Assembly: GCA_024679065.1 (NCBI GenBank)
Contig: JAGIQG010000020.1
Location: 21,390,001 to 21,454,000, forward strand
Direction: 5' to 3'
Length of the DNA stretch: 64,000 nt
Origin: Sphyrna mokarran
Lineage: Eukaryota
This document shows, one piece after another, positions 14,950 through 42,465 of the stretch. Position numbers and translations under genes: made by a program. Under the pieces are notes generated by a model. That model searched no databases, was not told where the DNA came from, and was given only the letters and a program-made list of their open reading frames with translations. Positions within the stretch are counted from its first letter, which is position 1; every line of letters starts with the position of its first letter.

Positions 14950-15093
14950 AGATCCGCGAGGCGTTTAAAGTCTTTGACCGCGATGGGAACGGGTACATCT
15001 CGAAGCAGGAGCTGGGCATGGCGATGCGATCACTAGGCTACATGCCAAATGAGGTGGAACTGGAGGTGATCATCCAAAGACTGGATATGGACG
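14950..15093 (+). CDS. CABP7: CABP7 coding exon 2 (EF-hand 1 and start of EF-hand 2)
   Basis: Acceptor cttctcccaacAG|, donor |GTAGGA; 144 nt. In frame with exon 1: [48 protein letters not shown]. Canonical EF loop [12 protein letters not shown]. Confidence 0.97.
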
Positions 15094-15574
15094 GTAGGAG
15101 GCAGAATGCAATTTCTTGCATCCTGGCACCCTCTTATCGGGGTGTCAGGATGATCACAATAACTGCTGCCTCAGATCGAAGCACATTGCAGGCTGGTACC
15201 ACAGAGTGTCTGTTTGCAGTTAGCTCCAGTAGAAATCATTGGTCTAAGATATGGCTTTCTTGTTACCTTCAGTTGTTGGGAAAATGTTTGCTGAATTTCT
15301 TTATTCCCCCCCCCCCGTCTCTCGCTTAAACCTTGGTCTTTTGCTGCATCAGAATCAGATCACATCTCAACCTGAGATTGCATTATATACAGCCAAGTGG
15401 GTGGTGGAAAGGTTCATACATAAAGATAACGGGGCTTGGGGAAGCAACAGATTTCACGTCAAAAATCTATCAAATTAATGAAACTAAACATAATTTCAAG
15501 TGCTGCATTATGCCCTAGTGTTGAGCGAACTACAGGTGGCACATAATGCACCATACTACCACTTTAAATCCATA

Positions 15575-15740
15575 CACTCCAAAGACGTGCAGGGTAGGTT
15601 TCTTGGCCACGTTAAATCGCCCCTTAGTGTCAAGGGGATTTGCAAGGTAGATAAATGGGGTTACGGAGATAGGGCCTGAGTGGTGGGTGCAGACTAGATG
15701 GACCGAATGGCCTTCTTCTGCACTGGAGGGATTCTATGAT
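15575..15740 (+). mobile_element. HE1-like V-SINE 3' part, tail type A (CR1/HER1-like)
   Basis: ccaaagacgtgcag...gaatggccttcttctgcactggagggattctatga. Confidence 0.8.
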
Positions 15741-15806
15741 TATCTGCTAGGTAGAATTGGCTGTCTTTCTAATGGAAGCAACGGTGGCTGCCTGCAATGT
15801 AAAATG

Positions 15807-15969
15807 GTTGTCATGATGTGGAGATGCGGCGTTGGACCGGAGTAAACACAGTAAGTAGTCTCACAACACCAGGTTAAAGTCCAACAAGTTTATTCAGTAG
15901 CAAAAGCCGCTAGCTTTCGAAAATAAAACTGTTGGACTTTAACCTGGTGTTGAGAGACTTCTTACTGTG
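15807..15969. mobile_element. Penelope-derived palindromic insert (P1)
   Basis: Inverted arms; 14 bp direct repeat tgcaatgtaaaatg at 15793-15806 and 15968-15981. Confidence 0.8.
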
Positions 15970-16654
15970 CAATGTAAAATGCCAGTATTGAGGAAGTGGA
16001 TCCGTAGCTCAGCAATCGAGATGAAGTGTATCTTTAGATACACTTGAAAGGCAGAGTATGAACTTGCCGGCGGTATAACAATCTCAGATAGTGTGAATTG
16101 TCCCCATATAATCTCCTCACGTCCAGGGTTAATTGCCCGGCCCCCCTGCACATTGAGGTTTTTGAAAATCCCGTCAAGCGATTGACTGGGATTTTAATGT
16201 CAAGAGGATAGCGAAGGTGCTGGAATTAGTCTCGGAGAAGGACTTTCCTAATGATCGAGGAAAGGGAATCTGAATTTACACCATTGTTCATCAACTCTGA
16301 GCAGCAAATTTGACATTTATTTGATTGTATTTAACATGTCCCCTTGCCTCTACCTCAACAGAGGGCAACTCTTACGTGCGTCACTGTATACTTATTCGTT
16401 TTTTTAACGTTGTGCTTTCCAGAAACTTGTGTACATGTTTGCGATGTTTTTTTTAAAGGATACTATTATAGCCCGTTCATGAGCTGGGGGTAATCTGTTA
16501 TATCGAATTGGTTGATAGGATAACATCAGACTGCTCTGTATGTTACAAGGCAAATGGGAGATGGGGCTACATACCACTGGAAATAAAGGGTGAGATTTGT
16601 TGAAGGGGAAATTTTGTTATTGATCAAAATGAAATTTCAGATCAAGACAACTTA

Positions 16655-17135
16655 AATTTTAAGTGTCAGAAGGAGGTTTACATTAACACTGTAGTGAAGT
16701 TTCTGTGAAAATCCCCTAGTTTTTTATTTGTGTAGCAAGTAGGCCTACATTAACACAGCAATGAAGTTACTGTGACAATCCCCTAGTTTTTTATTTATTA
16801 GCGTCCCAAGTAGTCTTACATTAACACTGCAATGAAATTTCTGTGAAAATCTAGTTTTTATTGGTTTCACAAGTAGGCTTACATTAACACTACAATGAAA
16901 TTTCTACAAAAATCTCCTAGTTGTCAGTCTGGTGCATATTTAGATACTGAGGGAAAATTTAGCATGGCCAATGCACCTAAACATCAGTCTTTTGAATTGT
17001 GGGAAGAAACCGGAGCATCTGGAAGAAACCCATGCAGACACACGTGTTAGATTCCGAGTGACCCACGCTAGGAACCGAATCTGGCTCCCTGGCCCTGAGA
17101 GGCAGCAGTGATAACCACTGTGCCACTGTGCCATC
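16655..17135 (-). mobile_element. HE1-like V-SINE, type B, with a four-fold tandem tail
   Basis: Four ~65-70 bp units containing tacattaacac..aatgaa.tt.ctgtgaaaatc(ccc)tag at 16660-16920, followed by the SINE body. Confidence 0.85.
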
Positions 17136-17714
17136 CTATACATGGGTGTGAGGGAGGAAAATAACACTCCAGAAGTCTGAGCTCTTCTTTTTGAGCTAGA
17201 TTAAGGTTAAGACCCTTACTCCAAGAAAGGGGAAGAATGTGCACAAACTGAAGGCAGACTTGATGATGGATAATCACTGCATTGACTGGAGATAATGGGA
17301 ATGTACAAACCAAAGGGAAAATGAAATAGAGATGGATTGGGAAGGATACTGCCAGGATGGGGTTGTGCCAACCTAGAACAGAAAGGCAAGACCAAAAAAA
17401 TCCATCAGAAAAATAAAGTTCTGTCCCACAGTGAAGGGAAAATCTACTGCATCTTCTCAAATTGAGAGATAGTAGCAGTTACAAACGAGCTAAGTGTGAG
17501 GGATTGCATCAAAAGCTCGGGTACGTCAGAAGCTCAGCCTCCTCCTACACTTGAATATCAATATTTTCTTCAGGAGAATTGAATGCTGAAGTGGGATCAT
17601 TGGAGACTATGCTCATAATGAGTAGAGGAAAAAGCTCGAAGGGCATCTGCTCCTACCTTCTATGTTTGTATGTTTCTATAAGACAAATGTGTGAAAGTGA
17701 GAGTTTCCCATTTC

Positions 17715-18100
17715 TGTAGCCTCATTTCTAGCACTCACAATGTCTCAAAGAGATGCAGAACCAATGAATGTAAAATAGATTTGTTGTACAACAGTCATCA
17801 GAAGGGTTGAATTTGTACACCCCAAGCTCCTTAGAGGAGAGAAGCGATTAGTTGATCCGCGTTAGCTGGCATTGATTCAGAGATGAGTGCTAGGCTGCAC
17901 GCTGAAATGACTCCTTTTCCCTTGGGAGAATGTTGTCGGATCTTCTGCTTCCACCCTCGGTTTAACAAAATTTATCTCAAAACACGCCGCATCTGACAGT
18001 GCGGCACTCCCTCCGTGCGTGCTGCACCAAAACATGCTCCAGTCCTGGTCCGAGGCTTGCACATTCATGATTCAGATGCAAGTGCTGGCGCCACGCCAGG
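17715..18100 (-). mobile_element. Old Deu-domain SINE (SacSINE1-like)
   Basis: cctcggtttaac..atctcaaaacacgccgcatctgacagtgcggcactccctc is the reverse complement of the Deu-SINE region gagggagtgctgcactgtc...gttaaaccgagg. Confidence 0.6.
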
Positions 18101-18222
18101 ATGATACATTCAGTGATAAGGCATCCCACTCTGTAGAAGCTGATTCGTGTATCACTGTAATTCAGCGAATCGCACGATCCCAAATTATTTGAACCCTCCA
18201 TTCTAGAAATGTGAGGGTATAA

Positions 18223-18658
18223 ATTTAAAATGCTACTTACTCGTGTTTACCGTGCGGACTTTCTAAGACGTATATTCAACACGAATCAATTAAATAAAAA
18301 TTGCCTCAGCTTTTTAGAAATCGGAGGCTCGCGTCTTTTGAGTGACTGAACAATAATCTACTTAATGTAGCGAGCAACCAGTGATATTAGGAGCATTTAC
18401 TCAGATGCCAAGACATAACTCTCGGCCTCTCTCCACTTGGTAAAGGGAACGCATGGAAACATCAGAATGGATCTTGCGTCCAGAGGCACTTGCGCCTCCT
18501 TTTACATTAATAACCGACATTAAGTAGATTATTGTTCAATCACTCAAAAGACATGAGCCTCCGATTTAAAAGAAACTGAAGCAGTTTTCATTTAATGAAA
18601 TCACAATGAATGTATGTTTTAGCCTGCATGGTAAGTATGGCTAAATAGTATTTTAAAT
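18223..18658. repeat. Long imperfect inverted repeat (foldback)
   Basis: 18318-18368 versus the reverse complement of 18517-18567 is 48/51 identical; similarity extends out to atttaaaat (18223) / attttaaat (18658). Confidence 0.92.
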
Positions 18659-18704
18659 GTCTATTATTGGCTCACAGTTACTTGAACCTCCTTGATTACT
18701 GAGT

Positions 18705-19027
18705 TGGAGATGCTGGTGTTGGTATGGGGTGGATAAGGTGAGAAATCACAGGATACCAGGTTATAATTCAGCAGATTTATTTAAAACGTCGAGCCTTGGG
18801 AGCACTGCCCCTTCCTCAGGTGAAGTGGAGAAAGGTGCCCAGGCAGAGAACATGTAGGCAGAGTGACAACAGCCCCAAACTCGCAGGTAATTGAGCATCA
18901 CTCCATCTATATATTCTGTGCCTGTGCGTCTCTACCCACTTCACCTGAGGAAGGAGCAGCGCTCCCAATGCTTGTGATTTCAAATAAACTTGTTGACTAT
19001 ATTCTGGTGTCCTGTGACCTCTCATCT
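18705..19027. mobile_element. Penelope-derived palindromic insert (P1 variant)
   Basis: Arms gggagcactgccccttcctcaggtgaagt / acttcacctgaggaaggagcagcgctccc. Confidence 0.75.
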
Positions 19028-19054
19028 TGTCCTTTATCATTGGCTCCCAGGCAG

Positions 19055-19355
19055 AACATAAAATCCCTGCAGTGCAGAAGGAGGCCATTCAGCCCATTGA
19101 GCCTGCATCTGCAACAATCTCACACAGGCCCTAGCCCTGTAACCACATGTATTTACCTTGTCCCTTGACACTTAGGGGCAATTTATCATTGTTAATCAAC
19201 CTAACCCACACATTTCTGCACTGTTGGAGGAAACTGGAGCACCCGGAGGAAGACAGAGAGAATGTACAAACTCCACCCAGGTAGTCACCCAAAGCCAGAA
19301 TTGAATTCAGGTCCCTGGCACTGTGAGGCAGCAGTGTTAACCATTGTGCTGCATG
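19055..19355 (-). mobile_element. HE1-like V-SINE, tail type A
   Basis: aatccctgcagtgcagaaggaggccatt...ctgtgaggcagcagtgttaacc. Confidence 0.85.
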
Positions 19356-19714
19356 ACAACCTACTTTACTATTGGCTCCCAGCACTTTTGCGTCCACTAT
19401 TATTGGTTCCTTCCCTGCTAGGTTCCCCAGTAAACACTGCCAGGTTTCTTAACTATTCCAAAGAGAGGCGGTAAATTCTGCAGCCCAACCTCCTCCAGCA
19501 ATTGATGTCGCATAATTTATGAAGTGGCTAAACTTCACCTCATGCACAACACCTGCTCCTAGTAATTGGTTGAAAGACATACTGCTGGGTTAAACCTGCA
19601 TTGGAATTTGTTAAATGATCTTAATGCTGCTCAAAGTATCTTAACATCTGGACTGCTGTTGGCAAGTCGATGCAAAAAGATGACCAGATTTTTACTCACT
19701 GTACTTTTTTTAAA

Positions 19715-19866
19715 TTAAAGCAAAATACTGCGGATGCTGAAAATAAAATCAGAAAATGCTGGATAAACCCAGCAGGTCTGCCGAGAGAGAAACATAGTTA
19801 ACACATCTGTTTCCTCTCTCCTCAGCCACTGCCAGATCTGTTGAGTTTATTCAGCATTTTCTGTAT
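19715..19866. mobile_element. Penelope-derived palindromic insert (family P2)
   Basis: cagaaaatgctggataaacccagcaggtctg / cagatctgttgagtttattcagcattttctg inverted arms; same family as the 34510-34615 and 55955-56065 termini. Confidence 0.7.
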
Positions 19867-20625
19867 CCCTTTTTTAGAAAGTGGTTCTAGCTCTACATTG
19901 GTAATTACAGGAATAATAGGATCCCTTTGGAAGATAATTTGCCTTAAGCATGATTTGAACATGGCCAGAAATCTGATCAACTATTTGACCTTTCACAAAT
20001 CCGGCATTGTTTGAATTTCAATTGATGAAGGTTAACACAGGAGGGCATTCTGCAATTCTACCAGTGTAGCCAATTTGGTTTTTTTTGCCCCACTTGTGCA
20101 TATGTATTATAAATGAACTGTAGGCATATGATATAGAATACAAGTATTTTTCATTACAATTCCTCACCTCCCTGGTATTGTTTCCTTGTGTGAATTCATC
20201 ATCTAGGCAAGTCATTTAAGGGATTGTATTCTTAACTTTTTTAATCTTAGGAAAAATATAAACATGACTATGTATACAAAGTGCGAGGACGACAGTGGTC
20301 TGTTTTTGTTGCTGTGTTGAGGATTCCTGCTTTCAATTAACAAATATCAGCAATTTTCTTATTAGTTTTGCTTGCTGCAGACTTGCTGAAGGTCATTCTT
20401 AGTAGCATAATTAAATAAAAATAAGACATTTTAATCAGTTAGACTGATCTTAATATGCTTAGCAAATAGGAACATTTTGAAATATCACCAAGTTTGTGGC
20501 AGAAATAAATAGCCCACAAGATTTTTTTTTACCAGCAAGCATAAGGGTGGCTGCCATTGTTGAATATATTGCAGTGGATGAGATGCCAGCCCAGGAACAT
20601 TGGGGCAATTTTAACCTAAAGAGAG

Positions 20626-20995
20626 ATTTGCATTTGTATAGTGCTTTTCAGAACCTCAAGGTGTCTGAAAAAGCTTTACAGCCAGGGAAGTATTTCTGAA
20701 GTGCAGTCACTGTTGGGATGTAAGAAACACAGCAGTCAATTTGTGCACAGCAAGTTCCCACAACTGCAATGTGATCATTTGTGATGTTGATTTGAAGAAT
20801 AAGCATTGGCCAGGATACTTTGGGGTAATTCCCCTGTTCTTCTTCAGAATACTACTTTGGCTTCTTATACTTTCACCTCCGAGAACAGACAGGACATCTT
20901 ATCCAAAATACAGCATCTCCAACCATGTAGCACTCTCTCAGTATTGTGCACATTGTCAACCTTGATTTCACTGTTCAAGTTTCAGGAGTTGATAC
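20626..20995 (-). mobile_element. Deu-domain SINE (SacSINE1-like) with L2-type tail
   Basis: gctttacagcc..gtcactgttg..aatttgtgcacagcaagttcccaca..ttggccaggatac..cccctgttcttcttc matches the reverse complement of the Deu domain. Confidence 0.75.
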
Positions 20996-21611
20996 AACTG
21001 AGTCAGCTGCCTGTTTTAAACTCCCCTGATTCATAATAATAAACCAAAAAATCAGATGGATGTAAGACAGCCTACCCCATCCTATCCATTTTCTGCTAGA
21101 CAATTTAGGTTAAAACTGGCCCCTAAAAGAATCCATAAATGAAGAAGCAGATAATAGCTGAGGCAGTTATGGATTCCACAGTTGAGTCATTTAGTGAGCC
21201 ATAGAGGTGCAATGTATCTGTGAACTTATATTCTTTACAGAGGCTGGGACTCAGAAGTGTGCACAATGATCTGAAGAGGTAGTAACCATCTGCAATAGAT
21301 TATCACTGTCAATAAAAGATATTATTGGCCTCAGATGTGATGCTCTGAGTAATTAGGACAATTAATCTTTTTACATTAATGCAATGTAAAACCTCAGACT
21401 GAGTTAAGATTACTAAGTTGTACTTTGGTGTGCTGTTTGAGTATAATGTGTCTTTCTGGAGTACTTACAATGAATTATGCAGATATGGATTGAAGACCAC
21501 GCACCTGACAAGTCTGTGTTGTTTTTTATCCTTCACACGAGCAACAGTCCGAATCCCATGTATTTACCATTTTCCATTTCTTCAGCCATTTATATAAACT
21601 GTACTTAAATG

Positions 21612-21830
21612 ATAGAAACATAGAAACTAAAAGCAGGAGTAGGTCATTCAGTCCTTCGAGCCTACTCCCCCATTCATCTTAATCATGGCTGAACATTGAA
21701 TTCAATATCCTGATCCGTCTCCTTTCCTCCCATATTCCTTGATTTGGCAGCCCCAGGAGTTATATCTAATTTCTTCTTGAAATCAGACAATGTTTTGGCC
21801 TCAACTACATTCAGTGACAGTGAATTTCAC
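21612..21830 (-). mobile_element. CR1 3' tail fragment
   Basis: atagaaacatagaaactaaaagcaggagtaggtcattcagtccttcgagcct. Confidence 0.7.
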
Positions 21831-22599
21831 CAAATGATCTTTGCTTCAATCATTAGCTCTAGTTGTGCATGTTGCAGTCTCAGAAACAAGTTCCTCCTCA
21901 TCTCAAATTTAATTTAGATCCTCCCACTTTCAATCCCAAAGTTACTGAAAACAATTTGGGTACACTTATTCTTCATGATTTCTCTTGTAAAGACAGGTCT
22001 GACCCAGAGTGTCGCGACCTCCACACAAATGGGGAAAGAAGGCAGATCCCAAATCCAAGCCATGTGGAACAAGGTTTAAATTCCATTGCTGTTGGATCAA
22101 TCTGATCCACACTGGCCATGCAGCCAACTGAGCCAATCAGCCAACAGAATCGACCAATCGACCACCCCACTCTCCCAGGGTCCAAATTACTGTTGAAACA
22201 TGCATTTTCACACACATGCATGAATGTTGTAGCCTGGATCTATGCATAGTGATAGAGGTTCCAGTTTCTTTCTAATACATGGATGAGGGGGAATCTCTCT
22301 CACTCTTACCACTTATCATTGGCATATGTTGGAAGAATTTACAAGTTGCTACTCAAACAATGTAGTTGCATTATGAAGACACATTTCCTGGCTCTGACAT
22401 GGGACTTGAACTCAGTGGCAAGGACATTATCCACTACACAAAAATATCTCCCATATGTTTATTTTATCCCTCCATAATTTAAAACAGTTCGATCAAATCA
22501 TCCCTTCATCTGCACTGTTTCCATCAAATCCACTCATGTTTTTCCAGTTGGATTCATATTCTGCTCCAGCTGGAGTTTTGTTTCCAATCCAATTTTGTA

Positions 22600-24020
22600 C
22601 CATTCCCTTAGGAAGGACATGAATTCTTGAGTGAGGGTAGAAAAGAGATTTACTAGAATGGGCCCAGTCACGAGGGATTAGCTATATCAATAGACTAGAG
22701 GAACTGGACTGTTCTTCTTAGAAGGACAAAGGGAAATTTGATAGTGGTGTTTAAAATCATGAAGAGTAAATAATGCGAGAGCAGCTAAAGAGAAATGTTT
22801 CCAATGGTTGAAGATTTTCAGGGAAAGGATTTAAGGGAATTGGCAAAAGAACCAGAGGCAAGGTGAAAAACATGTTTCATGATGCATGATTGAGATTTGG
22901 AATGGATTGTATCTCAAGGGTATTGGGTATTGTCGCCTTCAAAAGGGGAAAGGATAAATACTTGAAGGAGAGTACATTACAGTGATATGGGAAAGTGTGA
23001 AACTAAACTGGATTGCATTTCTGTTGCAAATCTATGATTTGAATTTTCTCATATTAGTTCAATAAATGGAGGAGAGTGGAAACAGGAACTACAGTCAGCA
23101 GTTGGGAAAATGCTAGAATCCATTATTACTGAAGAAAATCATACTATGATTAGGCAGAATCAACATGAAAGGGAAATGTTTGACCAATTTGTTTGATGTT
23201 TTGAGAGTACAATTAGCAGGGTAACTAAGGGGGAGTCAGTAGATGCAGTACATGTGGACTCCCACAAAGCATTCATTAAGGTGCCACATTGGAGGATGTT
23301 AGACAACATTAGGGCTCATGGGATTGAGGGTAATATATCAATATGTATTGATTGATTAATGGACAAAAACCAGAGTAGGAATAAATAGATCATTTTCAAA
23401 ATTAAACCAGTGAAGTTCTGCAAGAATTAATGCTCGGGCCTAATGTATTTCCAAACTATATCAATGACTTAGATGAAGGAAACAAGTGTAACATTTTAAA
23501 GTTTACTGATGCTGCAAAGCTAGATGGGAAATTAATCTGTGAAGAAGACACAAAGAAGCTGCGTTGGATATGGATTGATTAAGTGATTGAGAAAGAAGGT
23601 GACAGATTGATTAAAGACATTTCGGTAGGAAGAAGAGAAAAGAATTAAAAATTCAGATATTTGAAGATTACATTTTTTCATATTCAAAGGGAGCTTGAAG
23701 TCCTTCTATATAAATCACTGAAAGCTAGCGAAGAAGTACAGCAAGCAATTAGTGGAGAAAATGCATGGGATTATGTGATAGGGCAGAAGGGTGGTCCTAG
23801 ATAAAATGCTCAGTCAGAGAGTCAATGTAGACTCAATAGGCTGAATGGCTTTGTTCTGCACTGTAGGCATTCTATGATTGACAGGTATGTGATATATATT
23901 GATAGAAGTTGGGAATCGGGAATTTGAGAAAAGGACCAGGAAAATGGCGGCGTAAAAGTTCGGTTATGATCTGATGGAGGAGGTTCAAGGGGTCAGTAAT
24001 GTACTTTTGCATTCTTATGT
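22600..24020 (+). mobile_element. Cluster of old CR1 fragments
   Basis: Decayed RT motifs (tatatcaatgacttagatgaagg = YINDLDE; aagtttactgatgct) and CR1 tails at about 23035 and 23875. Confidence 0.75.
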
Positions 24021-24821
24021 TCAGACAGACAGCTTCTTAGTTAATCTGTGTTCTGCTCTATTTATACTATCAGGAGCCCAGTACTGACGTCGTCTTAAGG
24101 TTCCATAAAGATCATTATATCTTGACATTTCCATTTCCATGGCTCTTGCCATAAAACTCAATATTCTATTAACTATTTTACAGCCTTGTCCATTGAAAGT
24201 AATTCCTTAGCATACAGTGAAGATGAACCATCAAATCTCTCTGCACCTAGTTTTCCAATATTCATTTTATCGTTATTCTGTTTTTTTTTGTGAACATATG
24301 CATTTACTGACATTAAATTTAGTCTGCCAATTTTGCTTATTTTCACCAATTTACCTATATTTTCTTTTAGCTCACGTTGGTCCTCAGATTAATGTGCCTT
24401 AAATTTAGATACAGTTCTCTCTGGCTTGTCTTTAAAATTATTAATTAGACAGTGCCACCCCGGAGCTGAACCCTGTGAGACACCACTAAAAAATTACAAC
24501 CACTGAGAAACAGACTGTAATTGCTCCTCTCTATTCCCTCCCTTCTAACCAGATTTTAATCTAATTTGCTACTTTTTTGCTCACCTGTGACTATCCCTGA
24601 TGCACCTATTTCAGTACTGGGGATCTTGTACTGAAGTTGATAGTTTGCTGTTTACAGATGCCCCTATTGCCTTTTCAGGGTTACCTGTTGACACAGGACT
24701 GCTGCCAACGTGAAGTTCAATTTGTAACTGTATAACTTCACATGTGCCACAATCAGAAAAACTTTCTTCACTGAGCATAGACAAGCAGGCATTAATAAGA
24801 TCTCAGAACCCCTCTTTATGA

Positions 24822-25525
24822 GATAGAGTCATAGGAGTCACAGCATGGAAACAAGCTCTTCAGCCCAACTTGTCCATGCCGCCTTTTCTCTACCACTAGA
24901 CTAGTCCCAATTGCTCGTGTTTGGTCCATAGGGTGTGGAATGCCCTGCCTGCAGCAGTTGTGGACTCGCCAACTTTAAGAGCGTTCAAACGGTCAGTGGA
25001 TAGGCATATGGATAACATTGGAATAGTTTAGGTTAGAAGGTCATTAGATTGGTTCCACTGGTCGGTGCAACATCGAGGGCTGAAAGGCCTGTACTGCGCT
25101 GTAATGTTCTATGTTCTATATTCTATGTTCTATATCCCTTTAAATCCTTCTCACCCATGTAATTGTCCAAATGCTTTTTAAAAGACAAAATTGTCTTTAC
25201 TACTAACTCTGGCAGCTTGTTCCAGATGCCCTCTGTGTGACAAAATTGTCCCTCTGGACCCTTTTATATCTCTCCCCTCTCACATTAAACCTATGTCCTC
25301 TAGTTTTAGACACCCCTACCTTTGGGAAAAGATGTTGACTATTTAGCTGATCTATGCCCCTCATTATTTTATAAACCTCTATAAGGTCACCCTTATCCCT
25401 CCGACGCTTTGAGGAAAAAAGTCTCAATCTATGCAGCCTCCCCTTATAACTCAAACCATCAAGTCCCGATAGCATCCTAGTAAACTTTCCTGCACTCGTT
25501 CTAATTTAATAATACCCTTTCTATA
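24822..25525 (-). mobile_element. CR1 3' part hosting a younger CR1 insert
   Basis: ORF 25203-25475 MLSGLDGLSYKGRLHRLRLFSSKRRRDKGDLIEVYKIMRG is the CR1 ORF2 C-terminus. Confidence 0.85.
24931..25134 (+). mobile_element. Young-type CR1 3' end, opposite orientation to its host
   Basis: ggaatgccctgcctgcagcagttgt..ggtcggtgcaacatcgaggg..(gttctat)n; closely related to 53600-53780. Confidence 0.85.
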
Positions 25526-26771
25526 TCTTTTCAGTTTTCATCCTTGAACCATTTTCTAAGCAAGTTGAAGCTGCCCATAACAGTGCCACCAGGCAAATTT
25601 TTGAACCTGCATTGGGAGTAAGAGCAGAGGATGATGGTGCTAAAAGTAGTCCCAATGCCAGTTGTAATTCATGAACAAATGGTGTCAAGCAGCAGACACT
25701 TCATAATGGCTGTTGTGCCTGTCTCTTTGGTTTTATTTCTGCTGAGGCAATATGGGGGGGGGGGCGGTGGTTGCAACCTGCACTGGGTAGCCTATCTGGC
25801 TCATTAAGGACCAATTCAAGTAGGCAGACTGGGGTTTTCCACGCAGCCCCCGGGATCCACAGGCAAAAGGGGTCTGATTAGGTGCCTGGAAGTGAATTGC
25901 CCATGAGGTAGCAGTGGAAATCAGTGCTCCAGGAGGAGCAAGAGTCTCTCCCTAGTGTGCATGGTGCAGCAGTAGTCACAGGCTACTCTGGAGAAGGCTG
26001 CTCCATTGATAGTGGTGGTCAGTGCAAAATCCAGTTTCCTTTTTAGTTTAAAGTTTAAATAAAGTTGGTAAGAGAGTGCCTCCGTTTTGAAGCATCTTCT
26101 CCCTCACTTTCCAACGTAGCCGGCTGTGCTTCTGCAGCTGGAAGGTTTCTGACCCTTTAGCTTCAATAGTCTATGCACTATCCTTAATTGGATATTGAGT
26201 CCATCCTCTGGCCTTTAAATAACTGCCCACAAGAAAAAGAAATCATAGAATTGTAGAATCAATGAATCATTTCTTCTCGCACCTTGTGGCCTTCTGACCT
26301 TCACTTGAGTCTGACAATGATGTTCAGAAGCAGGGATAAAAATTTCTGCTCATAGATTCAAATCCCCAAAGCTGCTGATCAGCAATTGGAGCATTTGTGG
26401 GAAAGGCTTCTACTGTGCCAGTGGCTGAGTGTCTTGTGTCTCTACTGCAGATGCCTCATGGCAGACTTAATGCAGATAATCATTGCCCTGTGAAGTCATT
26501 CGTGGGAGTTGGCAGTGCCTATCTGCATGATTAATTCCATGCTGTCCAGACTAATTTAATGTACAAGTAACAAAGTGACTCCTCCATATGCCCTCATGCT
26601 CCAATAACAGCCTTTATTTCAAAGGTCTATTGATATTATGGTCTATTGATATGAATTATATATTCACATAATTCAGGAGAGACAATAAGCATCCAAAACC
26701 TCTGTCCTGAACTGGACAAGCTCAATAATAATCAGCACCATCCCCTACAAGTACTCTGTTTCTTCATATTT

Positions 26772-27076
26772 TAAGTTTATTTATTAGTGTCATAAGTCAG
26801 CTTACATTAACATTGCAATGAGGTTACAGCGAAAATCTCCAGATTTGGAGTGTGAAGAGTTGCCACACTCCAGTGCCTGTTCAGGTGCACAGGGGGAGAA
26901 TTTAGCATGGCCAGTGCACCTAACTACCATATCTTTTGGACTGTGAAGGAAGACTAAGCACCCGAAGAACACCCACACAGACATGGGAGGAACGTGCAGA
27001 CTCCACACAGTCAGTGACCCACGGCTGGAATTGAACTCAGGTCCCTGGTGCTGTGGGTCAGTAGTGCTAACCACTG
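26772..27076 (-). mobile_element. HE1-like V-SINE, type B
   Basis: Head, V core and type B tail all present. Confidence 0.85.
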
Positions 27077-27214
27077 TAAGGTTCCGCTGTAAGGTTCTAA
27101 AGATTGAATTGGCTTTCGCCTCAATTTAGGATAGTGTCCGTACTTTCTGGTGAATAATATGAGTCCGATTTAGCTGAGTGATGGGACTAAATGATGCATT
27201 ATGAGTAAATAAGC

Positions 27215-27370
27215 ACATGTCTGAAAGATGTACTGTTAGGTGCATTGGCCATGCTAACTTCTCTTTCAGCGTAACGAGACACCGGAGATTGGTAACTAGG
27301 GGATTCTCACAGTAACCTAATTGTAGTGTTAATATAAGCCTACTTGTGACACTAATAAATAAATTTAAAA
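27215..27370 (+). mobile_element. HE1-like V-SINE 3' part, type B
   Basis: gttaggtgcattggccatgctaa...cctacttgtgacactaataaataaa. Confidence 0.8.
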
Positions 27371-27541
27371 CTTAAAACTTCTCCCTGGTGCTCTGTCACA
27401 TGGTTCAGCATGATACTTCACTGGGAGAGAGTGGTGTGATATTGGGAGCAACTAGTGTGATCTTTACTGATATTTCAATAGCTTGTTAATTTTTTACCGT
27501 GAGTTATATGCTGTCTTTCAACATTGACAGACTCTGTGCCT

Positions 27542-27862
27542 TCATAGAATCCCTACAGTGCAGATGAGGCCATTCAGCCCATCGGGTCTGCACTGACTCT
27601 CCAACAGAATATCTTACCCAGCTCCCCTCCGCTGCCCTAAACCTCACACTTTTACCATGGCTAATCCATCTAACCTATACATATTTGGACACTAGGGATC
27701 AATTTAACATGGCCAATCCAGCATACTTGCACATTTTTTGGACTGTGGGAGGAAACTGGAGACCCAGAGGAAACCCATGCAGAGAATGTGCAAACTCCAC
27801 ATAGACAGTGTGATCGAAGCCGGGAATTGAAAGGGCCCCTGGTGCTGTGGGACAGCAGTTCT
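27542..27862 (-). mobile_element. HE1-like V-SINE, type A
   Basis: tcatagaatccctacagtgcagatgaggccatt tail plus V core. Confidence 0.85.
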
Positions 27863-27869
27863 AATGAGA

Positions 27870-28130
27870 AGTGGTACAGTGACACAGTGTTTAACACTGC
27901 TGCCTCACGGCATCAGGTAACCAGGTTCAGTTCCGCCTTTGAGTTTCCTCTGGACGCTCCAGTTTCCTCCCACAGTCCGAAGATATGCAGCTTAGGTGAA
28001 TTGGCCATGCTAAATTCTTCCTCAGTGTACTCAAACAGGCACCAGAGTGTAACGACTAGGGGATTTTCACAGTAACTTCATTGCAGTGTTAATATAAGCC
28101 TATCTGTGATTAATAAGTAAACTTTAACTT
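27870..28130 (+). mobile_element. HE1-like V-SINE, type B, head-to-head with the previous copy
   Basis: acactgctgcctcac head, V core and type B tail. Confidence 0.85.
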
Positions 28131-29694
28131 TAACTTTGAGTTTGTCCAATCAAAGAGATCAACAGTGGCTCACTCAGACAGCTTCATTATCTAGAATTCC
28201 AACATCTGTTCTATGTCATTCCTAATGATGGTGTTCATATTTCTTCATGTCCTTACAGCAACACTTGCAAACTTCTAACAACTTCAGATTTCCATTGTGT
28301 GTATAGCTATCCCATGCTGCTATGCTATTTATCTTTGTGTTATAATTTAAGGCTTACGACTCCTTTCCCACTTTCATGGGCTGCCCCTGACAATTAACAC
28401 AGACTGCATCATGTCTGTTATATGCTTTTCCCCATGTCGCCTCATTTTCATGCTTGGAAGTCATTCTCCCTCATAACAAAATGCGTCATTGCAAAGCTCT
28501 GTGCTAGCTTTCTCAGAGCTTGATCTGTAAAATAAGATTTTCTCTGCAGCCACGGTCTATGCCCGTTATATGCTCCTCAGCTGAATGACTGAACATTGTA
28601 CTATTCTTTCGAGTAGGCGACTGCTTTCAGTTGCACTTGCCTGGGCTCATTTATGGTGAGTAACTCATTCCGTGGTGGTTGCTGTAATTCTTGATTAGAA
28701 CTATGTAAAGGTGCCAAGTAATGTACAGGAGCTTAGAAAGGAACGAGGGAGAAAGAGAGCACCTTCAGGATTGAGAATTCCCTTTCTCCAGCTGAGCAGT
28801 TGCAAATACCAAATCATCAGAGGACACAGAAAAACTGGCAGAGCGACTACAGTTAGGAAATGATAGCATTTTTAAGTACCAGCAGTTGAGTGGAGCCCAA
28901 TTAAGCTCAATGACACCATACTGTGTAATGTGTGTGTGTAAAGGAAGGAAAACAGTCATATGCGCCACTGTGTTGGCCTTTAGCATTTGGGCACACAGAC
29001 TGAGTAACAAATGTTACTAGTCTGTGTGCCTAACCCAATGGGTTGATTCTGGTGTCTTCCATTGGGGTGAGAATTCGTAACATGGCGTCTATAAATTTGT
29101 TCTTGTTACTTTACTATGCAAGTTGGGGCTGCTGAAACTGTGGGAGTAGAATAGTTTATGATTGTGAAAAGATTGTGAAGCTGTGCACGCAGAGAGGAAG
29201 AAACATTATGTGCACGTTATGAACAGCTCTCGGAGATTGGTAATCTATCGATAACCAAGTCAACGCAAGGTGACTTTTTTATGGGGAATAATTGTATCAA
29301 AAGCCACAGAAAAAAATTAAAGTTTGGAATACCATAATGAAAACTTAAATGCTTGACTGTTTGCTCCCAATATCTTCCTATCAGAAATCTCTTTATGTAG
29401 AGATGTCCAGCTAATAAAATAATTTATTTTTGGAAAAACTAAGCCTCGATACTCCAATTTGTTGTGCAAAATTTACTGTTTATGCAAATGAAGTAACTTG
29501 AATATAGTTATCAGTTTTAAAGATATGTCTGATCTGTACTGTTTTCTCATGTAGCTCTGAAGATTTTGACCTGACAGTTTTCTAAATTCTTTTCCCAGAC
29601 CCTGTTCAAGTGGTTAAGTTGATTAGAGGTGAACTTTGAGATATAAATCGGTGCTTTTAGTTCAAACAGTTTATTATATATTTAACACCTTGTT

Positions 29695-30575
29695 TATTTT
29701 TCTTCATTAATAGGATGTGGCCATCGCTGGATAGGCCAGCATTTATTGCCCATCCTTAATTGTTAGTGAAATAGGTCTTGTGTCACAGTGATTAGTGTCC
29801 TTGCCTCTGAGCCAGGAGAGAGAGTGAATGTTTGTGGATGGGGTGCCAATTTAGCAGACTGCTTTCTCTGGATGAGTGTTCTTCTTGAATGATGTTGGAG
29901 GCGCATTCATTCAGGGAATCATATTCCAGGCTCATGCTTTGTAGATAGTAAACAGGCATTGGGAGTCAGGAGATGAGTTACTCACCATAGGACTCCTAGC
30001 CTCTGACCTGAACTGGTAGCCAGTATTTATATAGCTAGTCCAGTTCAGTTTCTGGTCCATGGTAACCTCCAGGATGTTGATGGTGGAGATTCAACGATGG
30101 TATTGCCATTGAATGTCAACAGGGCGATGGTTAGATTCTCATTGGAGATAGCCATTTTCTGTCAATGTGTGACACAAATGTTACTTGCCATTTGCAAGTG
30201 AAAGCCTGGATCTTGTTGAGATCTTGTTGCATTTGTACATGAACAGCTTCAATATCTGAGGATTGTGCAATCACCAGCAAACATGACCACTTCTGACTTA
30301 TGATAGAAGAAAGGTCATTGATGAACCAGTTGATGGTTGAATCAGTTGAAGACACTCTTGCTGTGGTGTTCTGAAACTGATATGATAGACCCCCACAACC
30401 ACAACTTGTAGTAGGTGTGATCCCAACCACTGACTCCGGTTTTGCTAGGACTACTTGATGCCTTGATGTCAAGGGCAGTCACTCCGACCTCACCTCTGGA
30501 GTTTAGCTCTTTTGCCCATGTTTGAACCAAGGCTGTAATGAGGTCAGGAGCTGAGTGACCTGAGCAGAACCAGTG
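29695..30575 (-). mobile_element. Fragment of the second CR1-group LINE
   Basis: GHSAPDLITALVQTWAKELNSRGEVGVTALDIKA and FINDLSSI..MQQDLNKIQAFTCKWQVTF; same 3' tail as 5550-5600. Confidence 0.8.
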
Positions 30576-31440
30576 CTCCAGTGTTTTCAACATGTATATT
30601 TTTTGGGATATGCCAGCCATATCATTTTATTACAGGAAGCCAAATGAATCCTGTTATTAATTTTCACTTATTTAATGCAGAAAAGTATGACAGAATCATA
30701 AAGGACTACATGAGCAGGTCTGTCAATTTAACTGTTTAAAAATATGTTCATATGTTTTAGGGTAAGGTTTGCAGAGTGAATGGCAAAATATTTGACATTT
30801 ATAGTTTGATGAAAAATTGCTTCAAAGGTTAATGGTGAATCATCGATAGATTGGTAAGATTGTACAGTATTTTCCCAATTTAGCTAAATTCAAAATTCAA
30901 TTCATTTGGATCAAATTGCTATATTTCCATCCACTGAGTTAGTGTTCGTTTAACCAAAAAATATATATATAGTAAACACAGTGGAGAGGATTGATGGAAA
31001 ACAATGACAAATGTTCCTCCTATTTTTTACTATTTACCCTGAGCCTTCCTCCCATGTGAAAATGTGTTTGGGAAATCATCAGTGGGAATGTTTACTTGGT
31101 GAGGACTATTAAAACTTTACAGCTGATTTTCATGTATCGAGAAATGTCAGGTCAAGATCTTCCGTCATGCTGAAACATTTTATGAACATAAACAACAATG
31201 ATTTAAATGAGTTCAAATAAATTCATTGAGCATGATTAAGCCTGCTATTTGCACTATGCTCCCACTGCAGCGAGGGGCGTCAGAGAATTTGGTGGCCAGC
31301 CAAATCTCCATCCACTGCTACCGGATGTGAAAATCCCTCCAGCATGAACAGTGCTAAGATTCCGCCCATGGATTCTGTAATTTGTATTTTATTCCCTGTT
31401 CATTGTAAATTTGTTTGCATGGGCCTTCTACTGTGGTCAG

Positions 31441-31662
31441 TCATAGAATTCTGCAGTGCGGAAGGAGGCCATTTGGCCCATTGAGTCTGTACCAACCACA
31501 ATCTTTTATCCCATAGCTCCACATATTTACCCTGCTAGTCCCCCTGACACTGGCAATCAACTTAACCTGCCCCTCTTTGGACTGTGGGAGGAAACCAGAG
31601 CACGTGGAGGAAACCCACACAGACATGAGGAGGACATGCAAACTCCACACAGACAATGGCCT
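31441..31662 (-). mobile_element. HE1-like V-SINE, type A
   Basis: Tail and V core present. Confidence 0.85.
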
Positions 31663-32008
31663 GAGTGATTGAAATGATCAGTATGACATGAACATCAGAG
31701 AGCTTTTTGTTTTATGTTTTTAAAACTCATGGAATATCAATGGTGCAACTATTAGCTTTCTTTCCATTGTAGTTGATCTTTTCATATCTGCTTTTCTGGT
31801 TGTGAAAACAACCAACGTTTCCAACATTTTCTCCAACTTTGAGCTAATGGACCATAACCCTTCCAGCTTAGCTATTGAATGCTAAAATTTCATTTCTTAT
31901 TTGCATTGATGCTATTGCTTCAAATATATATTATGCATCTGGCATGTCCTCAAATAGCTTTGACTTGTGCACATATTTTTTGTAAGGTTATTACTTCCTT
32001 AATTTCAT

Positions 32009-32144
32009 GGGGTAAATTTTCTGAAACAGCCCATCGGAGGAATCATTGTAGGTAGGACGGAAAATTTGGTGGACTATTTAAAATCGGTTGGCCGCGGGTA
32101 GGAATTTCCGGTCTTGGGGCAGGCGTTACTGGAAAATCCAGCCC
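32009..32144. mobile_element. Harbinger-type MITE
   Basis: TIRs GGGGTAAATTTTC / GAAAATCCAGCCC, flanked by cat/tat. Confidence 0.6.
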
Positions 32145-32372
32145 TATTTATCTGTATCACATCCCAAAAATACACCAAAACAACAGAAATAGATGCAGGA
32201 GCACACCCCCATGGCCTATCCAACCTGTTCTGCCATCCAATAAAATCATGGAAGATTTTGGGCTACAACTCCATTTTCCCTATATCCCTACCTATTTCTC
32301 ATATCCCTAAATTCCTTCTGAGACCAAAACTCTTGTCTATGCTAGCCTTAAAGGTATTTAACAACGGAGCAT

Positions 32373-33164
32373 TATGACATTAATATACCATTAAGGATTT
32401 TTTTTAAATCATGTTCTCTGAGGCTCTCAGCCTTCAGTCGGGCTGTCTGTAAGAGTCTTTTTATTGCTGCTTCGGTGATTTAATTGAGGCTTGTTTCTTT
32501 TTACTCTGGGTTGTTTTATGGCCCTGCATTGTTAGGAGGAACATTATAGGTTCTGGTCAGTTTTATTTCCTTTCTAGGGAATGCAAGGTTTTGATTTTCT
32601 GTTTTTGGCTGGTAGCAGTGTTTAGTTTAAAAGGGAATGGACATCAGATGGAAAGCAGTATCTCTCTCTCTCTCTCTTCTTGGGTTTTGGAGGTTCTGTT
32701 AATTAGCTGAAAACAACACTTCTTCCCTTCCTGCAGTAGAAAATCTGCTGTTGCGACTTGACCAGAGTCTCTCCCTGATGTCCTGGGAAGCTGTTCTGAC
32801 TTCAAACTGTTCTGAGTGTTTCAAGAGAACTATAGTATTCATCCAAAGGACTTAGTTCCAGTATCACATGAGTATTAGTCTTTGCTGAGTTAAACCTGTG
32901 GAAGGATTTTGTTTATGGGATTGGTTTGATTGGAACATTTCAGATTTATTTGTTAAAGGTTATACATTATTGTGGTTATTTTGTTTGTAATTGATAATAG
33001 TTATTGTTAATATTCTTACTATACATGTTAATCATATTCTTAAATAAACTTTGTTTGAGAAAAACTCCCTAGTGGGTCATTTGAATCATGCTTATCCTAG
33101 CCAAATTCAAGATGTAAAACGTATGATCCAGGCGGGCTCCATAAAACACTCCGGAGTTTCTGAC
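32373..33164 (+). mobile_element. LTR-like insertion within CR1
   Basis: About 790 bp unrelated block interrupting the CR1 tail; T-rich, (CT)n tract, AATAAA near the 3' end. No clear TG..CA termini. Confidence 0.4.
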
Positions 33165-33347
33165 CCTCCGGGATGGAGCATTCAAAAATTCACCATCCTT
33201 TGTGTGAAGTAATTTCTCTTCATCTAAATCCTAAATGACTGGCCTCTGATCCAGAGATGGGGCCTCTGTTTTAAACACCCCAATCTACAGAAACAATCTA
33301 TATCTGCCAAATCAAACCCCCTCAGAATTTTACTGTATTTGTTGCTA

Positions 33348-33639
33348 GGCAGCACAGTGTTACAGTGGTTAGCACTACTGCCTCACAGTGTCAGGGACCT
33401 GGGTTTGATTCCCAGCTTGGGTCACTGCCCGTGCAGAGTCTGCATGTTCTCTTTGTGTGTGAGTGTATTTCTTCTGGGTGCTCTAGTTTCCTCCCACAGT
33501 GCTAGTTAGGTGCATTGGCCAGGCTAAATTTTCCCACAGTGTATCTGAACAGGTGCCAGAGTGTGGTGACTAAGGGATTTTCACAGTAACTTCATTGCTC
33601 TGTTAATGTAAACCTATTGTGACACTAATAAATAAACTT
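33348..33639 (+). mobile_element. HE1-like V-SINE, type B (full length)
   Basis: ggcagcacagtgttacagtggttagcact..gggtttgattccc head, V core and type B tail. Confidence 0.9.
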
Positions 33640-34047
33640 AATGTGGCCTCCTTTTCATTTGGAAGACTTAATGCAGATTGTGTGACCACTTTGTGGAACA
33701 CCTTTGTTCTGCCTACCTGTCCCCACCCTTCCAGTCGCTTGCCATTTTAACTCAGCATCTTGCTCTTATACTCACTGGTCTTTCCTCGGCCTGCTGCAAT
33801 GCTCCAATGATGCCCAATGCAAGTTGGGAGAACAACATTTCATCCTCTGATTAGGCATGTTACAGCCCTCTGGAGTCAACGTTGAGTTCAACAACTTTAG
33901 ACTTTCTCCTCCATCGTGACCCCCTTTTTGTTTTTGGTTTCCTCGGTTTGTCCCAGTACATCCCCATCCATTCCCCAGCCAGCTATCTCTCCCTTGTTTT
34001 TAAGTTTTGCTTCTATTGAGCACTGACTTTTGTTCTGTTATTAACAC

Positions 34048-34134
34048 GATGAGGTCACACGACACCAGGTTATAGCCCAACAGGTTTATTTGAAGTCACC
34101 AAGCTTCAGGAGCGCTGCTCCTTCGTCTGGTGAA
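34048..34134 (-). mobile_element. Single-arm Penelope P1-variant insert
   Basis: Flanked by gttattaacac (34037-34047) / gttactaacac (34135-34145). Confidence 0.75.
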
Positions 34135-34366
34135 GTTACTAACACATTTTGCTCTCTTATTTTGTGCACTATTAGCACTTCTTCAGCCTGTAATGCCATT
34201 ATTTACACCCACTTTGTCTTATGCCCATGACATAATTGTTAATCTCTCTTTAGCTCCAATCTATCTCTGCCTTCCATTCTGCCCCACCAACCTCTCCAAT
34301 TATAAAGTTCATTACGTCTTTGTCCTCCTTCAGTTAGTAGAAGGGTCATAACAGATTCAAAACATT

Positions 34367-34507
34367 GGGGGGAGTTCTCCCGTTGCACTCGCCACAGGTA
34401 TTGTAGTGGGTGTGGGGTGGAGGGGGTGCAGCGGACTATGCAAAGATCCATTGACTTTGAGTGGGATCCTCTGGTTTTGAAGCAAACGTGGCTGCAGAAT
34501 CCTACCC
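34367..34507. mobile_element. Harbinger-type MITE with 3 bp TSD
   Basis: att|GGGGGGAGTTCT...AGAATCCTACCC|att; removing it restores the P2 terminus aaaacattaac. Confidence 0.7.
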
Positions 34508-35246
34508 ATTAACTTGATTTCTCCCTTCATACATACTGTCAGACCTGCTGAACTTATCCATCATTTTCTGTTTCTATTTCGAACTTAGATCATCCGCAGT
34601 ACTTCGCTTCTATTTACCCTGTGGAATTTTGTAGCTTTCAATGAGATCTCCTTTTGTTCTTCTAAACTCTAAGTACATGGGCCCAATTTATTTGACTTTT
34701 CATCATAGGACAGCTCCCTCCTCCCAGGGCCTAATCATGTGAATCTTCAACCTCCAATACATATATATTGTTCTTAAATATGAAGACCAAAACCGCTCAT
34801 TGTATTCCAGATGTGGCCTCACCCAAATAGCCAAATATGAAATTCAGAGGGTAATGTTGACTTTAGGAAGAAAACATTTCTATCATCTAGTGCATATTTC
34901 ATTTATTCTCACTTTGGAACGACTGTTTACAACATCTCCTTGTCCTTCTTCAGGTCATAGAATTGCAAGGCATTAAAATTTCCTGGATCCTGTGGATCTA
35001 ATATATTGCCAGGCAGGTTTTGAGACAAAAAGGCAATTTGGCAACCAGGAGAGAGGGCTCCAGCTTCCAGCAGAAGGAGAGTTCTCTTCAGGCCAGATGT
35101 GTCTCTTGGCTAAAACCCATCAATAAGAATCTAGATTAAGTTGTTGTCCATGAGTAAATATGGCACTCCATTCAAAATTTGCCATCTCAGATACAAAGTG
35201 TATGCCCTGCAAGAAATTTTAAATAACTGAGGAAACTCTGAGACTT

Positions 35247-35560
35247 GGGGCAACTTGATGGCAGTGTGGTTAACACTGCTGCCTCACAGCATCAGGATTC
35301 AATTCTAGCCTTGGGTGATTGTGCAGAGTTTGCATATTCTCCCTGTGTCTGCGGGGGGTCCGGGTGCTCCAGTTTCCTCACACAGTTCAAAGACGTGCAG
35401 ATTAGCTTGATCGGTCATGCTGAGTTGCCCCTTAGGGTCAGGGAAATTAGCAGAGTAAATATGTGGGATTATGGCAATAGGATTTGGATGGGATTGTCAT
35501 GGGCGCAGGCTCGGTGGGCCAAATGGTCTCTTTCTGCACTGTAGCGATTCAATGATTCTA
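35247..35560 (+). mobile_element. HE1-like V-SINE, type A (full length, TSD)
   Basis: TSD tgaggaaactctga(g)actt at 35228-35246 and 35561-35578. Confidence 0.9.
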
Positions 35561-35928
35561 TGAGGAAACTCTGAACTTGAGAGGAAAACAGCTGTAAGTT
35601 GTGACCTGGAGATTGGTTACGGAAGCGTACTCATCTATTCAAGACTCAGTGAATATTGCGATTTCATTGCAAAGAATCAAGCAGATGCACCTGGAGTTCA
35701 CCAAGCAAAAGAAGGATTTTATAATAGGATATGGTAATATGTATATATGGTATATATTATTACATGGTATATATAAAACTCCCTCAGAGAATGATGGTGA
35801 TGCATTCACAGATATTATACTGAATTGTGCTATTCGAAATTTGTCTGTAAGGTGCTTCTAACACCTGCTGCCCTTCAAGAAAGGTAAAATTTGCACTTGT
35901 CAGCTGTCTGCCAGGAAATAAACACCAT

Positions 35929-36995
35929 GGCTAGGATTCTCCCAAAAAATTTCAAATCCCCAATTTGCAGAAAAATGGGAGTAACTCCCATTGCTTTTCT
36001 AACATGATTTCCACAGCGAATCTTTGACGCTCTGTGCATTACACAATATCTCAGCGAGATTTTGCCTTGGGGGGTGGGGGACATATTCCCGCTTGAGAGG
36101 CCAACAATATGGTGCTGAGCGGATCATTGCACATGTGTCAACCTGTCAGAGCAGAGAGCAGCACATTCACACTGGGTTTGCACTGACGGCCTCCCGATCG
36201 CTGGGTAGTCCCACAACTCCCCATTCTGAATCCTCACCCCCCCCACCCCACGATCACTGGCCTCCCAAACCTCCCTGGACCAGCCCTGATGTCCTCCCTC
36301 ATGACCAGCCCCAATCTCCCTGGCCCCATTTCCCACTACCATCTTGGCTAGCCCCGATCTCCTGACTCCCGATCCCCATCCCCAACAATCCCCACCCAGA
36401 TCAGCCAACCTGGATCGCCATCCTCCCTCCCTCCAGCCTGCAATCCCGAGTGCAGACTGGCAGCAGAACCCCCCCCCCCGCCACCCCCACCTATTGTCCA
36501 GTTAGTAGGCCCCATTTCTGCTGTCCCCATCCTCTTGGCACTGCCTGATGCCTAGTGGTCAGTGCCCAGGTCCCCTTTGGCAGTGCCAGTTTGACCCTTG
36601 GACAGTGCCAGGGTGCCAGGCAGGCACTGCCACACTGGCACTGCCCAAGGGGCACAACTCCTCCCACTGCCAACTTCCTGTGGGAGGCCTCAGTGGCTTC
36701 TGTTAGCTCCAGCAACGTGGGCTGCCTGTTCCCCGTTTGTAGGGAGCATGGGTAAACCCTGTTGGAGTGAAGCATTCCTGGCTGGGAAGGAGACATGAGC
36801 AGGCCCAGAGACTTCAGTTCTGCTAATGACATGGAAATCCTGATTTCCGGCATGGAGTTGATTATTCTCAAAATCTTTGTCACAAAGACTCACAGAGGCC
36901 ATGGTGTCCAGTGGGAAGCCTGTGAAACAGCCCCTGCTGATGTCTCCCAGCCTGCTTTGCTGCTCGAACACTGCAGTGGGCTGGAATAATCGCCC
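35929..36995. mobile_element. Harbinger-type non-autonomous element with C-rich interior
   Basis: Ends ggctaggattctccc / ggaataatcgccc; GC-rich interior with ggcactgcc/ggcagtgcc motifs. Confidence 0.55.
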
Positions 36996-37219
36996 CCCTC
37001 TCCATTTTTTTGGATCCAATATCAAAATGGCTCCAAGAATACACGCTTATGGTGAAAGCTTATACCCAGTTCATCCTCTTGAATACTTGTACAGCAGTAC
37101 TGAATGATTATTCATCTCATCTGGCTCACTAATTCAAATTGGAGAGGAAGGTTTGTTGTTGGAGACAGGATTACGTTCAAGATAACCCTGAAAGCCAGTG
37201 TCCCAAAACATAGGGACAA

Positions 37220-42350: not shown

Positions 42351-42445
42351 GGGCTGGAATCCTCCATTCTCACGTTCTCAGCCAAATCTCCATTCACTAT
42401 AGTGGGACCGAAGAATCCCAGCTGCGAGTGAGATTGGAGAATTCC
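42351..42445. mobile_element. Harbinger-type MITE
   Basis: gggctggaatcctcc...ggagaattcc; interior gccaaatctccattcact shared with 31240-31367. Confidence 0.5.
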
Positions 42446-42465
42446 AAAAAGGCTGGCACTGGATG

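Follow-up and report, generated by a model that had tools for sequence, protein, structure and literature searches.

MITEs and foldback DNA transposons are short, non-coding elements with long terminal inverted repeats, and several families of the Eulor/UCON type are palindromic as well. Eulor/UCON-type low-frequency repeats, treated together with conserved noncoding elements derived from mobile DNA in Kojima 2018 (PMC5753468), are multi-copy families shared from fish to mammals. Inverted repeats made or homogenised by template switching consist of two arms around a unique spacer, with the inner portion better matched than the outer one; in the yeast cases of PMC8604942 the arms start at 7 bp and the spacers reach 70 bp. 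Penelope-like insertions with inverted pLTRs carry a one-sided tail of 30-40 bp (PMC3846280 and PMC8557442).

The foldback described in this work lies in a stretch of 64,000 nucleotides from Sphyrna mokarran (contig JAGIQG010000020.1, positions 21,390,001 to 21,454,000), which is referred to as the window. Like the Eulor/UCON repeats, it is an old noncoding element, hard to classify and apparently constrained after its origin, but no second copy was found and the comparison covers close relatives only. With the template-switch repeats it shares the two arms, the unique spacer and the better matched inside, whereas its arms of 146 bp and spacer of 148 bp exceed the yeast dimensions, no concerted change is seen, and spacer inversion is absent from the arm-spacer contigs of the relatives coded B, D and I. 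Inverted arms and a possible flanking direct repeat recall the Penelope-like pLTR insertions; yet no family, exact hammerhead core or one-sided 30-40-bp tail was found for the foldback, while its neighbour at 18731-19032 does match the Penelope pLTR pattern. The terminal inverted repeats around a non-coding middle are MITE-like, but multiple copies were not found, the terminal bases are the least conserved and the target duplication is doubtful. As expected of a conserved noncoding element, the centre of the foldback evolves more slowly than the flanks across relatives, a moderate effect with p up to 0.10 under overdispersion. We propose that the foldback, which began as a palindrome, functions in the way of conserved noncoding elements, with a predicted regulatory role. 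Our literature search found no paper on this foldback, which supplements could list as a conserved element.

The foldback, its host intron and the CpG step

The features of the locus are collected in Table 1. In the coding exon upstream of the foldback, which has AG/GT boundaries, 46 of 48 residues agree with human Calcium-binding protein 7 (PDB 2LV7), and the next exon, at ~58579, reads GDGQVDFEEF. The gene is on the + strand, and the intron between these exons, which we take to be intron 2 by the structure of the human CABP7 gene, holds the foldback 3.1 kb from its start.

Table 1. Coordinates of the foldback, its parts and its surroundings in the window
Feature	Position	Strand	Size	Remarks
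CABP7 (calneuron-2) coding exon	14950..15093	+		Upstream of host intron
Host intron	15094..58578	+	~43.5 kb	3' end approximate
CpG-rich zone	17750..18516			32 CpG, O/E 0.84 (window 0.27); stops at right-arm start
Direct repeat, left copy	18185..18199	+	14-15 bp	Imperfect; 13/15 with one gap
Weak outer extension of left arm	18200..18222			Inverted match to 18664-18686, null 0.02-0.08
Left arm	18223-18368		146 bp	Reverse complement of right arm
Left outer arm	18223..18317	strandless		Decaying at about flank rate; 6 substitutions vs H, the identical 6 vs I
Left core arm	18318..18368		51 bp	Slow-evolving; 1 substitution vs H
Spacer (loop)	18369..18516		148 bp	Slow-evolving, no second copy found; its 6 CpG also present in H
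Weak pseudo-exon	18405-18439		35 nt	In spacer; splice-like sites
Right arm	18517-18658			Pairs with left arm
Right core arm	18517..18567		51 bp	Slow-evolving; 1 substitution vs H
Right outer arm	18568..18658			CpG-free, decaying; 5 substitutions + 2 indels vs H
Direct repeat, right copy	18678..18691	+		Partner of 18185..18199

Global alignment bears out the arm limits of the original prediction, with complementarity at 112 of 142 aligned columns plus one 4-nt gap (by thirds, in order, 32/44, 32/47 and 48/51). The core pairing of 48/51 between 18318-18368 and 18517-18567 also stands as claimed, and the core does outmatch the outer arms, at 48/51 vs 64/91 (p=0.0006 by Fisher's test, and p=0.008 by a permutation that takes the selection of the best window into account). 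Both strands fold far more stably than shuffled sequence, at -193 kcal/mol (z -13.5) for the + strand and -187 kcal/mol (z -15.7) for the - strand, and in neither case did any of 100 shuffles equal the value. The weaker pairing said to continue into the loop is no better than chance, given that, when 2000 random 148-mers were drawn from the window, 64% did equally well. As for the mismatches, the 13 G-U differences reported earlier were recovered, but the A-C differences number 10 instead of about 8 (p=0.68), which leaves no strand bias; there are also 7 transversions, and a two-base core mismatch at 18331-18332 is present both in the window and in relative H, for which no difference is listed there. 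The earlier description was therefore confirmed in part: arms, core and CpG counts held, and loop pairing and G-U bias did not.

The second peculiarity of the locus is its position on a CpG step. Left arm and spacer make up the rightmost part of an extended CpG-rich domain that begins at ~13 kb; around the CABP7 exon, 13000-18500 holds 17-33 CpG per kb vs ~10 elsewhere, which suggests an intragenic hypomethylated region. The top five of 635 windows of 500 bp ranked by CpG start at 17801-18201, and CpG O/E is 0.84 over 17750-18516 vs 0.18 over 18517-19500. To the right of 18700, much of this CpG-poor DNA is inserted repeat.

Within the foldback, the left arm has 8 CpGs, the spacer 6 and the right arm 1. 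The reported contrast of 8 vs 1 between the arms was thus correct, and all seven asymmetric columns are transitions. One-sided CpG decay, as it had been called, is wrong for at least one of these seven sites (18242), and may hold for the other six. Since both relatives that cover 18242, H and I, read CA as the right arm does, this CpG was likely gained in the window's lineage; H has kept 14 of the element's 15 CpGs as they are. After this correction, six asymmetric columns have their CpG on the left arm and none on the right (p=0.03), and the simplest reading is loss on a putatively methylated right arm. GC-biased conversion towards the left arm was considered and rejected, as the non-CpG mismatches comprise 10 strong-to-weak and 9 weak-to-strong differences. 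The idea of an old palindromic element astride a CpG boundary fits the step, the methylated side being putative, and such twin arms provide an internal control for methylation-driven mutation.

Rates and arm pairs among the relatives

A run search by 31-mers shared with the element picked out 24 runs, which belong to 11 studies and of which none is recorded as RNA. Eight of these 24 were compared, each from a different organism (B, C, D, E, G, H, I and J in our code), with the window as A. All eight contain part of the foldback, the runs having been chosen for containing it, and the upstream flank is joined to the left arm on single contigs of C, D and E. H is the one relative that covers the whole element, with differences near contig ends unlisted, and its core difference at 18539 was deduced from the piece counts together with a contig of 36 nt that has twice the usual depth and matches the left arm exactly. 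One multi-relative comparison itemises 40 of its 135 differences, and the position-level work therefore rests on another.

The centre of the foldback, loop included, differs from the relatives at 1.4-2.7% of positions vs 6-10% in the flanks, and the outer arms at 6%. Over 18339-18546, substitutions amount to 3/208 in C, 4/208 in E, 4/208 in G and 5/208 in H; other stretches of the centre give 7/259 in B (18317-18575) and 4/169 in J (18363-18531). Flanks and outer parts give 30/462 and 58/722 in C, 27/453, 43/594 and 17/200 in E, 19/197 in B and 26/315 in D, for which a further piece (47/855) mixes flank, arm and spacer. Centre vs flank is thus 3/208 vs 88/1184 in C (Fisher p=0.0004), 4/208 vs 70/1047 in E (p=0.006) and 7/259 vs 19/197 in B (p=0.002), pairwise tests that are non-independent because all share the window's own long branch. 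The contrast persists when the comparison is limited to the far flank, which is poor in CpG (p=0.004 in C and p=0.03 in E), and also when the spacer is charged with every centre difference (C 3/148, p=0.009; E 4/148, p=0.07). In H, the zones give 2/102 for the core, 4/148 for the spacer and 11/183 for the outer arms (centre vs outer arms p=0.08); the spacer counts 4 substitutions and 1 indel against H, and 3 and 1 against G. The slow zone stops at mirror positions on both sides, ~18318 and ~18567.

Several circumstances temper these values. Regional rate variation with a CV of 0.5 raises the centre-vs-flank p to 0.05-0.10. The picking of runs by words shared with the element favours low divergence there, and the word shares of the runs were 0.10-0.22, with 0.12 expected at 6.5% divergence. 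Moreover, the measured flanks are only 5-10% diverged, so that the contrast spans close relatives and implies no deep conservation. On these data a moderate sequence-level constraint on the foldback centre is likely. Selection on the core, which had been suspected from its better match, agrees with the slow core, but the loop is equally slow, which points to constraint on the sequence more than on pairing.

The arms can also be followed as pairs. Twelve paired columns differ between A and H, nine of them broken in A and paired in H, two the reverse, and one a double change unpaired in both; none is compensatory, in a test of low power for the 51-bp core, which has only 2 changes vs H. On the assumption that paired columns show the original state, 10 outer pairs were lost in the window's lineage, or 5.5% per base as in the flanks, against 1 pair of the core (1%). 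With the lineage-specific breaks removed, the arms before the split were ~87% alike, with mismatches at 2/51 in the core vs 17/91 outside (p=0.019). If rates held, these figures would give the foldback about three times the age of the split that separates the window from the compared relatives. Sharks mutate slowly, at 7x10^-10 per base per generation (PMC10587355), and the foldback is therefore likely very old. The 4-nt gap near 18620 is filled in E, G and H, which marks it as a deletion specific to the window's lineage. This lineage broke 9-11 arm pairs vs 2-3 in H (9 vs 2, p=0.065), hinting at a longer branch than that of H.

Explanations for a slow centre

The explanation that we prefer, and to which we give about an even chance, is that the centre is under sequence-level constraint as enhancer-like cis-regulatory DNA at the edge of the putatively unmethylated CABP7 domain. 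The foldback would have originated in one inverted-duplication event, through a template-switching foldback copy or an insertion from a mobile family that has since become unrecognisable, with initially identical arms of 146 bp each. The outer arms would then have decayed neutrally and lost their pairing, and the central 250 bp (two 51-bp inner arms and the 148-bp spacer) would have changed three to four times more slowly, both before and after the split. Left arm and spacer, lying inside a germline-hypomethylated zone, would have kept their CpGs, and the right arm, outside it, would have lost six. The core may seem homogenised since both inner arms, perhaps a twin set of protein-binding sites, belong to the constrained centre and have drifted little from the original. 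The constraint would act on the DNA sequence, because the spacer, as slow as the core, is unpaired, and what is read is thus more likely sequence than structure. The cores of CTCF and REST gave no match at one mismatch in 17700-18720. Against an enhancer, the limits of the slow zone at mirror positions are not needed by such an element, and are expected of a selected stem.

If this enhancer-like reading is true, the locus adds to the list of lineage-level conserved noncoding elements one that arose by inverted duplication at the gene of a neuronal calcium sensor. It would also mean that the “homogenised core” of an old foldback can arise from constraint on the whole centre, without pairing or conversion, and that the rate of the spacer discriminates constraint of this kind from pairing or conversion. 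The significance is modest, and would be greater if RNA editing or a regulated poison exon were shown.

A somewhat unlikely alternative, though one to be taken seriously, is that the foldback is a neutral relic devoid of function, in which arm-to-arm conversion or template switching produced the inner match, and rate variation plus run picking the slow centre. Homogenisation of the arms of inverted repeats is known (PMC8604942), and foldbacks are common here: the window has 11 inverted repeats with a short spacer, and 9 of these overlap other window repeats. The overdispersed null (p 0.05-0.10) and the word shares, which lie near the expected value, are in keeping with a neutral relic too. Conversion, however, leaves the spacer neutral, yet the spacer is slow; it also predicts about three concerted changes in the core between A and H, where none is seen (p 0.04-0.06). 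Furthermore, the mismatch at 18331-18332 has stayed unrepaired, being kept in A and H, and E shares the contig break points. The slow spacer and the missing concerted changes thus argue against arm-to-arm conversion alone, which the original prediction had offered for the better match of the core.

A selected RNA stem, i.e. a 51-bp core duplex in the CABP7 pre-mRNA acting as an ADAR or Dicer substrate or looping out the 148-nt spacer, is in our judgement unlikely. The mirror-symmetric limits of the slow zone are what a stem would produce, and a perfect inner stem of 36 bp in H and E, and of 30 bp in C and G, can be read from contig break points. The foldback would be transcribed within the intron if CABP7 is expressed, and no change is listed in G, H or J for the AG and GTAAAG that flank the pseudo-exon. 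But there are no compensatory changes among the 12 differing columns, the G-U vs A-C ratio is 13:10 now (p=0.68) and 8:5 without the lineage-specific breaks (p=0.58), and the minus strand folds equally well (-187 vs -193 kcal/mol). Moreover, the window's lineage has tolerated a C-A mismatch inside the core, the outer arms break at the neutral rate, and Rfam gives no match over the element; over 10000-26000 it returned eight weak miRNA-family matches, all far below the gathering score and none on the element. A loop of 148 nt is unlike that of a pre-miRNA. The pseudo-exon, for its part, has a poor pyrimidine tract, and a donor close to consensus, which the right arm has at 18631, is lost in G and weaker in H; a right-arm micro-exon using this donor was rejected on account of the loss in G. 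With no compensation among the 12 columns, no strand bias and neutral decay of the outer arms, the foldback is probably not the maintained RNA hairpin that had been put forward.

A long shot is offered by recruitment of this one-off inverted duplication in sharks, either with a 51-bp inner stem in the CABP7 pre-mRNA that gates a 35-nt frameshifting cassette exon via the conserved 148-nt loop, or with a DNA palindrome that fixes the edge of the unmethylated domain. If the palindrome did fix this edge, its methylated and unmethylated twins would be a paired record of germline CpG mutation that reaches very far back.

Copy number, ends and neighbouring palindromes

DNA searches of the 2.77-Gb genome with the element and with its spacer returned only its own locus, a result that alone is no proof of rarity, and pattern searches were added. 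Five genome patterns gave 6 vs 4, 1 vs 1, 36 vs 11, 0 vs 0 and 0 vs 0 non-self vs control matches. Of the 43 non-self matches, 35 were checked (all 7 of the two core patterns and 28 of the 36 of the A/T-rich outer pattern) and none extends convincingly; in the outer pattern, despite its excess of 36 vs 11, none of the 28 fetched matches extends on both sides. The two best candidates, one of 16 bits (64 nt at 73%, A/T-rich) and one of 14 bits, were set aside as mostly the seed. The two core patterns have a 95% chance of at least one match given 4 two-armed copies at 80% identity, and likewise given 10 copies at 75% identity or 28 copies at 70%, if substitutions alone are considered; the search is blind below about 70-75% identity, where an older family would escape. 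As had been noted before, the window itself holds no further match apart from scraps of 14-29 nt, and no local template for the element was found within 13000-24000. In 4 of the 8 runs a different contig carries 40 nt that match 18560-18600 at 80%; we took this as chance, the loose ends being unlike in the single run that shows them.

The ends of the foldback are less clear than its core. No clear target-site duplication abuts the arms, as the original prediction had it, but an imperfect direct repeat matching at 13/15 brackets an element that extends a little further, its copies lying 19-23 bp beyond the clear arms, with a possible 10-bp alternative. Its null frequency is 0.024-0.088, varying with flank length, and it is possible, weakly, that this 14-15-bp repeat is a decayed target-site duplication. 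At 18194, one nucleotide is absent in two of the three covering relatives (C and E), which closes the gap of the repeat, and present in D. The direct repeat and the inverted extension 18201-18222/18664-18686 are each matched by 2-9% of random flank pairs, and at most one of them explains the end bases, because they overlap. The hammerhead motif gave no exact core on either strand and one at one mismatch (background 54% of windows), in a weak test, since the motif also missed most of the window's own Penelope-type stubs. A one-sided tail of 30-40 bp is absent, with 23 and 19 bp, roughly symmetric, between the arms and the direct repeat. The foldback has no similarity to the Penelope stubs of the window or to any pLTR family found in the genome.

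Membership of a visible dispersed mobile family, whether a MITE or foldback DNA transposon or a Penelope-type stub like the neighbour 18731-19032, is the least probable of the explanations: long terminal inverted repeats flanking a unique middle, a possible direct repeat of 14-15 bp (or 10 bp) and the abundance in the window of Penelope-type palindromes with target duplications speak for it, but neither DNA search nor the five patterns gave a second copy among the 35 of 43 non-self matches checked, and exact hammerhead core, one-sided 30-40-bp tail and Penelope-stub similarity are all missing, so that a family above ~75% identity is largely refuted. The MITE proposed earlier would be expected in many dispersed copies, of which none other was found at the sensitivity given above; a high-copy MITE with no conservation across species, which was to refute the original prediction, is not what the searches and the relatives show. 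Taken as a whole, the original interpretation was partly supported: an old palindromic element at a CpG boundary fits, selection on the core finds support in part, and the MITE and the RNA hairpin do not.

The window contains other foldbacks of interest. Directly against the right flank of the foldback lies a decayed Penelope-type palindrome (18689-19042, with its arms within 18731-19032), which has a 13-bp target duplication (10/13) and a one-sided tail of ~30 bp, and is high-copy in relatives. Palindromes with related arms, several of them with a one-sided tail, occur at 1523-1703, 15847-15969, 44021-44260 and 46109-46220, and look like Penelope stubs. A repeat with ~20 matches in the window forms inverted pairs at 12479-12960 and 62255-62931, each a long intronic foldback. 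An open frame of 480 aa at 52256-53698 (+) presumably encodes a CR1/L2-type LINE reverse transcriptase, as its reading suggests. Finally, a second small palindrome of ~97 bp (36577-36673, 75%), which matches nothing else in the window, sits in a G+C-rich stretch.
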